From Asterionella formosa (Eukaryota), in the NCBI GenBank assembly GCA_002256025.1, contig NKIB01015265.1:1-36882 (forward strand): a DNA stretch of 36,882 bases. The letters run 5' to 3'. Positions 12,848 to 14,166 of this stretch are shown here, piece after piece. Under the pieces are notes generated by a model. It worked only from the letters and a program-made list of their open reading frames with translations. It was not told the origin of the DNA and did not search any database. Numbering within the stretch: the stretch's first letter is position 1; the number at the start of each line of letters is the position of its first letter. The translations under genes and the position numbers were made by a program.

Positions 12848-14166
12848 TCATAAGTTAGACCGCTCTGTTCCGTCATGTTGCAATAAGAATGACGAGAATT
12901 TCTGGTTACAACCACATATTGATCCATCAGTGTGTATGTTGTTATCCTGTCGTTTCAGTTTGGTGACAGAGTGTCCATTTCTTTGCTTTATAGCTGGCGA
13001 CAAATAGAAATGAATCCGTAGAGCACCATTTTTTAAACTATTATCCAAAGCTCCTCCATGGACTATATCTCCACACATGAGAAAGATCAATATGAATGGT
13101 ATGGACAAATGTAATTGCATGCTTCTCATCCGAATAATTATCCCATATATTTAAACAGTTCCCTCCTAAAGACAAGGACATTATCATTCCCCAAGGCATA
13201 GGAGTTTCCCTTTCGCATTCTGTCGGTGTATAATCTTGGTGTGGTTTCTGAGGTTTTGGGTAGCCATTCTTTCCAGAACTGGTGATCAACATTGTGGTAG
13301 TGTGCGGTATAACTATGTCGCTATTGCCAGAGACATCATCAGAACCTGGCATTAACAAGCACTTTATCATATGCCAAGATGTTTTCACATTTGGCAGATG
13401 CAGCTTTGAATATTTTAAGCTGTCAGTATAATTCTTGAAAGGAAACACTTGTATGGCTTTTCCTTCCATGGTATTTGCAAGTGCTTTATATGTTGCAGTT
13501 GTTTTGAATGTTTGTTTCAACAAAAAAATAGGAGGGCTATAGATTTTCTCGGAAGTACAAAAAGATTTTCGCCACATGTAAAAATGGATCGTCTTTTTCT
13601 TCCGTTCCAAAAAACTCATCGGGAAGGAAAGATAAATTAAGGAAAAACACACATTCTTATTCAATTCTGTCGATAACATAAAGGAAGTTCTCGGTTCTCG
13701 GAACTGTTTTGATTAACTGAAATGAATCAGTGATAAAACATATCAAATCGTCTATTTCTGCTGCATTTGGTGGCATATTGTTGTCTTTCTGATGTAGTTT
13801 AAAATCTCGAGGAAAGTGAGTTTTCCATAAAATCATAGCTGGTCCTATATGTTTCCGAAATTTCCTTGAAGTTTCAAATGATGTTTTGTTGAACGAGCCA
13901 GACTCTAGGACCACATAGAATTTGATGAGAACAAAATCCAGGACACTGTCATCTAGTCTCGTCTCCCTCTTCCCTTTGTCATCATGATCAAAGTATCTAA
14001 CCAGTATGAGTCGTTCCTTACTCTTCCGTTGTCTCTTGATTAGACATGAAAAACGCCATAGAAACACGTTTTTCCTGATTGAAAAATCTGCGATCGGTAT
14101 CCCCTTCACAACCAAGATCGTTCCATTCCTTGTAGCACTTGGAACGTTTGCCATTCCAGATAACAA
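12848..14166 (-). pseudogene. Frameshifted 2OG-Fe(II) dioxygenase-like gene inside the transposon
   Basis: Overlapping ORFs 13657-14166, 13041-13679 and 12848-13129. Motifs occur in the expected order: QKPHQD (HxD), beta-strand-like WGMIMSL/LNIW, GDIVHGG (distal H), LRIHFY (2OG-binding R). Confidence 0.6.

Follow-up and report, generated by a model that had tools for sequence, protein, structure and literature searches.

A dead two-gene PIF/Harbinger-type transposon copy in Asterionella formosa DNA and its second gene, a candidate PhyH-like oxygenase

Introduction

The 36,882-nucleotide (nt) stretch of Asterionella formosa DNA analyzed here (assembly GCA_002256025.1, contig NKIB01015265.1, forward strand; hereafter the window) contains, at positions 12836-15022, a repeated segment built around a broken gene that we call ORF2 (open reading frame 2). 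In our favored reading, to which we give a probability of about 0.55, the segment derives from a two-gene PIF/Harbinger-type transposon, of which it is a dead copy with an internal deletion, and ORF2 encodes a protein with a PhyH-like oxygenase domain. In full-length relatives a DDE_Tnp_4 transposase, 111-nt repeats in an array, and ORF2 would follow one another on a single strand, with ORF2 ending inside a terminal inverted repeat. The C-terminal ~210 residues of the ORF2 protein would most likely form a PhyH-like Fe(II)/2-oxoglutarate oxygenase with an HxD motif and a distal His followed at 14 residues by an Arg. An earlier note, made from the letters of the sequence, had described the gene as a dioxygenase-like passenger of a Harbinger transposon. 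The features of the region are collected in Table 1.

Table 1. Features in and around the element (window coordinates; a dot marks features listed without a strand)
Feature	Position	Strand	Basis or remark
Decayed two-gene PIF/Harbinger-type copy, read as internally deleted	12836..15022	-	Collinear with L002-L005; inverted repeat ends
ORF2 pseudogene of an unannotated 433-505-aa family	12848..14154	-	Aligned in three frames by tblastn with intact P0063, P0064, and P0010
PHQDY, candidate HxD metal ligands	13244-13230	-	hhalign sets PHQDY on the PhyH WHQD motif
FLMCGDIVHGG, candidate distal-His strand	13084-13052	-	Translated gene and family alignment
GALRIHFYLSP, candidate 2-oxoglutarate-binding Arg 14 residues past the His	13027-12995	-	Translated gene and family alignment
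Premature in-frame TAA	13659-13657	-	Gln in intact copies
Frameshift near 13567, one extra base relative to other copies	13566..13570	-	Public-run copies without one base at 13566 or 13570
Second frameshift	13113/13114	-	Public-run copies without one base at 13113
Terminal inverted repeat arm at the 3' end of the gene	12840..12916	.	Overlaps the final 22 codons and stop
Terminal inverted repeat, other arm	14949..15022	.	Plus strand encodes the same C-terminal peptide, ending in FLVQHDGTGWTNL and a stop
94-nt DDE_Tnp_4 transposase remnant	14858..14951	-	84.7% identity to L002 1320-1417
Four tandem copies of a 111-nt unit, between transposase remnant and ORF2	14347..14799	.
Block of repeated DNA holding the element, between two host genes	10682..17126	.	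Contig depth

Results

ORF2 is a dead gene with a history of constraint

ORF2 reads on the minus strand from an ATG at 14154 (initial residues MANVPS) to a TGA stop at 12850-12848. The earlier note had reported a frameshifted gene of ~1.3 kb with PHQD, GDIVHGG, and LRIHFY motifs, and all three are found in the places it gave; its end point at 12848 was right, but the start codon lies at 14154 and not at 14166. Comparison with intact relatives by tblastn identifies three lesions, one in-frame TAA and two frameshifts, and because these have killed ORF2, the window copy is non-functional. A single break had been noted at about 13670; the gene is indeed broken there, but by two lesions, the TAA at 13659-13657 and a frameshift near 13567. 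The frameshift that had been put at about 13100 is also present, and its position is corrected to 13113/13114. The window copy further carries a Cys (FLMCGD) in place of the conserved Arg of the family motif FLMRGD.

A metagenome scan returned six related loci (L001-L006), against which the evolution of the gene was gauged. The ratio of nonsynonymous to synonymous substitution rates (dN/dS) is 0.38, 0.40, and 0.41 for the window copy compared with L002, L005, and L001 over 384, 344, and 273 gap-free codons, respectively; L003 and L004, which are near-duplicates of L002, and the short L006 were omitted from these pairs. Much of this divergence thus dates from a period of constraint on the protein, and ORF2 has been under purifying selection (dN/dS ~0.4).

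The gene ends inside an inverted repeat and lies beside a transposase

The 3' end of ORF2 is embedded in one arm of an inverted repeat. Positions 12848-12916 pair with 14949-15017 (69 nt, 77% identity, blastn E 7e-9), and by eye, allowing a 3-nt indel, the repeat extends to 12840/15022 (69-77 nt), in agreement with the earlier placement of the gene between terminal inverted repeats. The arm at the gene includes its final 22 codons and the stop; the opposite arm therefore encodes the same C-terminal peptide, and this resembles the C-terminus of the intact 433-aa proteins described below. Three left boundaries fall within 5 nt of one another: homology to L001-L004 and L006 stops at 12835, 60 contigs of the left-flank repeat diverge from the window past 12835, and the inverted repeat ends at 12840. 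The right limit of the element (15022) is taken as the end of the inverted repeat. A resemblance between the outer flank of the right arm and the downstream flank of the metagenome loci, seen in a MAFFT alignment, received no support from blastn and was set aside.

L002-L005 are collinear with window positions 12835-14863 at 82-84% identity, and all four contain the same 111-nt array. The layout of L002-L004 is a DDE_Tnp_4 transposase, then tandem repeats, then an ORF2-type gene, all on one strand, the ORF2-type gene being the only second ORF beside the transposase. In L002 the transposase is represented by two frame pieces that together cover the DDE_Tnp_4 profile. One of them (L002:1312-1581) matches PF13359 (DDE_Tnp_4) with E 2.7e-10 at profile positions 97-158 and also PF04827 with E 9e-8; the other (L002:561-1301) gives a weak match to positions 2-88, the N-terminal half of PF13359 (E 0.032), and to PF04827 (E 0.014). 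The ORF2-type gene copies in these metagenome loci are frameshifted as well.

In the window the transposase is reduced to a 94-nt remnant, which sits inside the inverted repeats, between the right arm and the 111-nt array. Its 56-aa ORF alone has no Pfam match. Compared with L002, the window also lacks ~580 nt of the stretch that separates the remnant from the array. Loss of the interior with both termini kept is the usual form of non-autonomous DNA transposon derivatives, and the simplest account is that the window copy kept both termini and lost its interior. The remnant, together with the DDE_Tnp_4 genes of L002-L004, bears out the assignment to Harbinger in the earlier note.

Two further observations concern this region. 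Two contigs of a public sequencing run (X1) join 13688 to 15002, skipping 1313 nt, and could be another deletion derivative that kept the arm. An inverted partial copy of the 111-nt unit lies at 12687-12722 (89% over 36 nt, E 3e-7), ~115 nt beyond the end of the element, and a simple inversion would not yield this order of blocks.

An unnamed protein family with conserved candidate metal ligands

A phmmer search of 1.84 billion representatives with the 223-aa middle piece of the window gene retrieved 9 proteins at E<=0.001. Word-indexed searches that used P0006, a 17-sequence profile, or a 7-sequence C-terminal profile as query brought further members, for a total of ~30 clusters. Their sources are exclusively metagenome assemblies, from JGI, ENA, NCBI, or Logan; none of the clusters has a name beyond "hypothetical" or a precomputed Pfam domain. 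Full-length members (P0010, P0012, P0014, and P0101) span 470-505 aa. The window's own subtype is represented by intact 433-aa near-copies (P0085, P0087, and P0091) from a 90%-identity cluster of 82 sequences, 40 of which were read, so that the intact copies for which the earlier note had proposed a search exist; the DDE_Tnp_4 transposases of L002-L004 lie beside frameshifted copies. Many further members are short or frameshifted fragments. A pattern scan of viral contigs and of prokaryote genome contigs found no relative.

The family alignment of 17 sequences, drawn from the 59 proteins gathered by then, has 33 invariant columns. Among them are the His and Asp of HxD and the distal His (17/17 each); the Arg is present in 16 of 17 members, and in 37 of 38 members selected by motif it stands at +14 from the distal His. 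An invariant Asn is also found, at PhyH-like spacing. Because the His, Asp, and distal His are invariant throughout the alignment, the motifs are not products of chance, and the HxD, distal His, and Arg of dioxygenase type that had been recognized in the window gene are thus borne out across the family. The N-terminal half of the protein (~250 aa) is predicted to be helical.

The C-terminal domain is probably PhyH-like

The C-terminal domain was compared with PhyH by hhalign, using PhyH profiles built from PF05721 matches in bacterial genomes. The smaller profile holds 12 of 14 matches from 5 genomes, two partial ones having been dropped; the larger holds 41 sequences, namely those 12 plus 29 new loci obtained out of 64 matches from 121 genomes. 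On the family side of the larger comparison stand 38 C-domains chosen by the presence of both motifs. Two segments align. The first puts the distal-His strand on the His strand of PhyH (score 21.3, P 0.019), and the second puts a strand and the HxD on the PhyH WHQD motif (score 19.8, P 0.032). They are collinear, and the gap between them is equal in the family and PhyH profiles. In relaxed alignments the HxD and His of the family likewise fall on those of PhyH, and the PhyH Arg is aligned four columns before the family Arg. None of 100 column shuffles reached 21.3 (mean 12.2, maximum 19.7), and the other controls scored 11.5 (reversed family), 11.7 (reversed PhyH), and 14.2 (family N-terminal domain).

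A language-model search of the ESM Atlas points the same way. For the whole protein, PhyH first appears at rank 9 (score 0.85); for residues 255-503, the PhyH set accounts for 23 of 30 matches among named clusters, with a best score of 0.94, such scores being rated by the Atlas as leads and uncalibrated for parts of proteins. No TET/JBP cluster is among the Atlas matches listed, and no member of the 29 searched matches Tet_JBP (PF12851) in Pfam at E<=10. The proposal in the earlier note that the protein is PhyH-like rather than TET-like fits these leads.

A number of results weigh against an oxygenase. With the 12-sequence PhyH profile, hhalign gave P 0.12-0.17, and 8 of 100 column shuffles equaled the score. 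For the two segments found with the larger profile, hhalign's own probabilities are 2.5% and 1.6%, and when the shuffling was done in 8-column blocks, which leave the motifs intact, the top score was reached in 17 of 100 trials and the collinear sum in 4 of 100. A PhyH hidden Markov model built here scores single members at noise (best 3.0 bits), and one member, P0013, has a His where the Arg is expected. Searches of Pfam, PHROGs, and NCBIfam with 29 members found no oxygenase family at E<=10, PF05721 itself matching 0 of the 29, and the family has no match in the PDB by sequence or by profile. AlphaFold2 produced no usable model either for P0010 with 17 sequences (mean predicted local distance difference test, pLDDT, 38.3) or for the C-terminal protein P0013 with 29 sequences (mean pLDDT 31.3). 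The pLDDT-38.3 model is too poor for its best matches in Foldseek (E 0.24) and in a VIA wide fold search (Z 5.0) to carry meaning. Finally, the shared-feature counts of the Atlas matches are 143-158, as against 170 typical of true family members.

Pfam likewise detected no oxygenase or DNA-binding family in the window's three gene pieces or in P0006, P0001, and P0009, and no Myb/SANT family was among the Pfam matches of the 29 members at E<=10. The library searches with the 29 members and the PDB searches yielded no DNA-binding family either. Stray library matches to LcrV, Toxin_4, and Fn3_Dep-1 were below their own cut-offs and were disregarded. The N-terminal half in the AlphaFold2 model is too poor to be judged for a Myb/SANT-like fold.

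The 2-oxoglutarate-Fe(II) dioxygenase proposed in the earlier note thus keeps the hhalign alignments, weak as their statistics are, and the Atlas lead on its side, but it gains neither a library match nor a usable fold model; the structure prediction that the note had recommended was run, but a double-stranded β-helix was not obtained. Judged on these profile comparisons, a PhyH-like fold for the C-terminal domain has rather better than an even chance of being correct. ORF2 might instead be carried by the transposon without being an oxygenase, as an accessory protein that binds DNA or recruits the transposase, or as an enzyme of another fold in which the His, Asp, and His form some other metal site or a structural site. 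An accessory protein of this kind would suit the position of ORF2 as the sole second ORF beside the transposase in L002-L004, where a Myb-like protein is usual, and would leave no surprise in the silence of the profile libraries, the two unusable structure predictions, or an hhalign probability of ~2%. It leaves unexplained why two collinear alignments in PhyH register outscore shuffled and reversed controls, why the Atlas matches are mostly PhyH, and why the HxD, His, and Asn are invariant and the Arg nearly so at PhyH-like spacing; a Myb/SANT match was not found either. We regard this alternative as possible but unlikely.

The element as a probable single unit, highly repeated

Depth was summed over contigs from four of 24 listed public runs (X1, X4, X5, and X7), and all four agree. 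In X1 the host flanks have a depth of 620-790 and 10505-17126 sums to 170,000-950,000, so that the element exceeds the host flanks several hundredfold in a quantity that is not copy number and supports only the description "highly repeated." Within the element, 12913-13815 (the C-terminal half of the gene) sums to ~300,000-350,000 and 13816-14718 to ~700,000-950,000 in X1; X4, X5, and X7 display the same contrast with the host flanks at lower depth. The element is highly repeated.

Several observations count against joining the transposase and ORF2 in one transposon. The contigs of L002-L004 reach only ~270 nt beyond the transposase start on its upstream side and show no 5' terminal repeat. 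All six metagenome loci have one common downstream flank and hence count as one independent insertion. At the left end of the window copy there is a TTA (12835-12837) with no matching triplet on the other side, and a clean 3-bp (TWA) duplication was not found at the ends of the single insertion examined on both sides. These points, together with the uneven depth along the unit, would be accommodated if the transposase and ORF2 belonged to two elements lying side by side, ORF2 with the 111-nt repeats and inverted repeats being a non-Harbinger element or a captured fragment. Two neighboring elements would not be expected to leave the transposase remnant of the window where it is, inside the inverted repeats and against the arm, in the same order and on the same strand as in L002-L005, and we consider this explanation improbable.

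It is more improbable still that the inverted repeat is a partial duplication of the 3' end of the gene made by rearrangement and that ORF2 is a multi-copy host family: the arms do encode a conserved C-terminal peptide and the surrounding 6.4 kb is rich in joints, but the end of the arm and the point at which homology breaks off, both to other copies and to the flank family, are no more than 5 nt apart, the repeat depth is high, many copies are fragmentary or frameshifted, and a transposase adjoins the gene. Nor is ORF2 a single-copy host gene, the case that the earlier note had set against its own claim that the gene is transposon-borne.

Surroundings of the element

The window is eukaryotic, and its long ORFs include those for coatomer gamma, an APC11 RING protein, a DnaJ protein, and WD40 proteins. 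Some 6.4 kb of repeated DNA separate a host gene whose end is near 10382 from the APC11 gene at 17380, and contigs of single-copy depth end at 10681/10745 and restart at 16944/17023. This tract is a patchwork of repeats with many joints, and the element copy thus sits among other repeats, as the possibility of nesting raised in the earlier note had anticipated. A 22-nt inverted repeat near the edges of the tract (10744-10765 / 16861-16882, 95%) was considered as an outer terminus; it is probably not a clean one, because the flanking triplets differ and the repeat depth starts 30-60 nt further left.

Two other segments of the tract have coding features. At 11141-11655 (plus strand) there are ORF pieces with a GAIDG-like motif, and the contigs of other copies continue past 11602/11655, where the window breaks off. 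The motif resembles one of Harbinger transposases, but the pieces have no Pfam match and no BLASTP similarity to the L002 transposase; they may be a second, unrelated transposase remnant and were not used as evidence. At 15660-16415 (minus strand) there is a 251-aa open frame with an acidic stretch and no Pfam match; the DNA here is highly repeated and well conserved, differing by 3-4% in other runs.

A palindromic motif, GGTACCAGGTACC, has 15 matches in the window at <=2 mismatches, clustered intergenically near gene starts (10443, 17055-17150, 20422-20436, 21681, 26725, 26811, 31886, 31926, and 32235), and it also occurs at L002 196, ~60 nt upstream of the transposase ATG. It was rejected as a transposon end, since it recurs in the intergenic regions of the window, and may be a promoter element of the host organism. 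A run of 66 N occupies 8024-8089.

Discussion

Canonical PIF/Harbinger elements encode a transposase and a Myb/SANT-like DNA-binding protein and generate a 3-bp TWA duplication. The element described here is like them in its DDE_Tnp_4 transposase, terminal inverted repeats, two ORFs, and high repeat depth. It differs in that ORF2 has no Myb/SANT match and comes from a new family, and in its long inverted repeats (~75 nt), which overlap the end of an ORF.

A recent survey (Kojima 2025, PMC12730594) describes the same canonical pattern and reports TET/JBP dioxygenases in fungal DNA transposons of eleven lineages, Harbinger among them. The rust-fungus elements of the Harbinger superfamily with TET/JBP are there called PHISTA; the TET-bearing Harbingers lack a Myb/SANT protein, and an anti-silencing role has been proposed for them. 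Through Repbase Reports cited in the same text, oomycete HarbingerS elements are recorded as encoding a SET-domain histone methyltransferase. The view in the earlier note that typical Harbingers encode only a transposase and a DNA-binding protein is, on this published material, out of date.

PHISTA resembles our element in being a member of the PIF/Harbinger superfamily with an extra gene beside the transposase, here for a candidate Fe(II)/2-oxoglutarate oxygenase. In contrast to PHISTA, the ORF2 family has no Tet_JBP match, its weak similarity is to PhyH, and the oxygenase fold is here a candidate one; PHISTA elements are fungal and have three ORFs, whereas the host here is an alga found in freshwater metagenome runs and two ORFs are seen. 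HarbingerS is similarly a Harbinger-type element with a putative chromatin-modifying enzyme, but of another enzyme class. A PhyH-like gene in a eukaryotic DNA transposon was not found in literature listings on Harbinger, dioxygenase, and diatom transposons. Oxygenase-bearing Harbingers are thus already known from the fungal TET/JBP elements; a PhyH-like one, if real, would be new.

The likeness of ORF2 to PhyH (PF05721) lies in the order and spacing of the HxD, distal His-Gly, Asn, and Arg, in the two collinear in-register hhalign segments, and in language-model neighbors that are mostly PhyH. The differences are that the Pfam PhyH model gives no match, that the family Arg stands at His+14 and the PhyH Arg four columns earlier, and that ORF2 has a helical N-terminal half of ~250 aa and is borne by a transposon.

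The word "passenger" used in the earlier note is probably wrong, because ORF2 is the only second ORF in the relatives, has its last 22 codons inside the terminal repeat, and evolved under constraint (dN/dS ~0.4). We infer that it serves the element: ORF2 would hold the place of the Myb-like partner and would be needed by the transposon. Binding to the transposon or to its transposase may be the task of the helical N-terminal half, and the C-terminal domain may act as an oxygenase on a silencing mark. The protein could be an accessory factor replacing the Myb-like partner, an enzyme removing such a mark, or both. A bolder extension, which we hold to be speculative and rather doubtful, is that in an algal PIF/Harbinger lineage a PhyH-like oxygenase joined to a helical N-domain has taken over from the Myb-like partner as the sole accessory protein, and that it keeps the element active by acting either on the transposition machinery or on marks of chromatin or nucleic acids at the element. 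It would then be the first case of an oxygenase other than TET/JBP being integral to a DNA transposon.

How mobile DNA counters host silencing is illustrated by transposons that themselves encode enzymes modifying chromatin or DNA, and the oxygenase examples have hitherto been the TET/JBP genes of fungal elements. Should ORF2 prove to have some other function, it would still represent a previously undescribed accessory protein, from a repeat family of great abundance. The existence of intact 433-aa copies brings production and assay of the enzyme within reach. Were ORF2 to work as a PhyH-like oxygenase, there would be a Harbinger element that manages without a Myb-like partner; an unnamed protein family would gain a testable activity, and the idea of transposon-borne silencing antagonists would reach a second oxygenase lineage and the algae.

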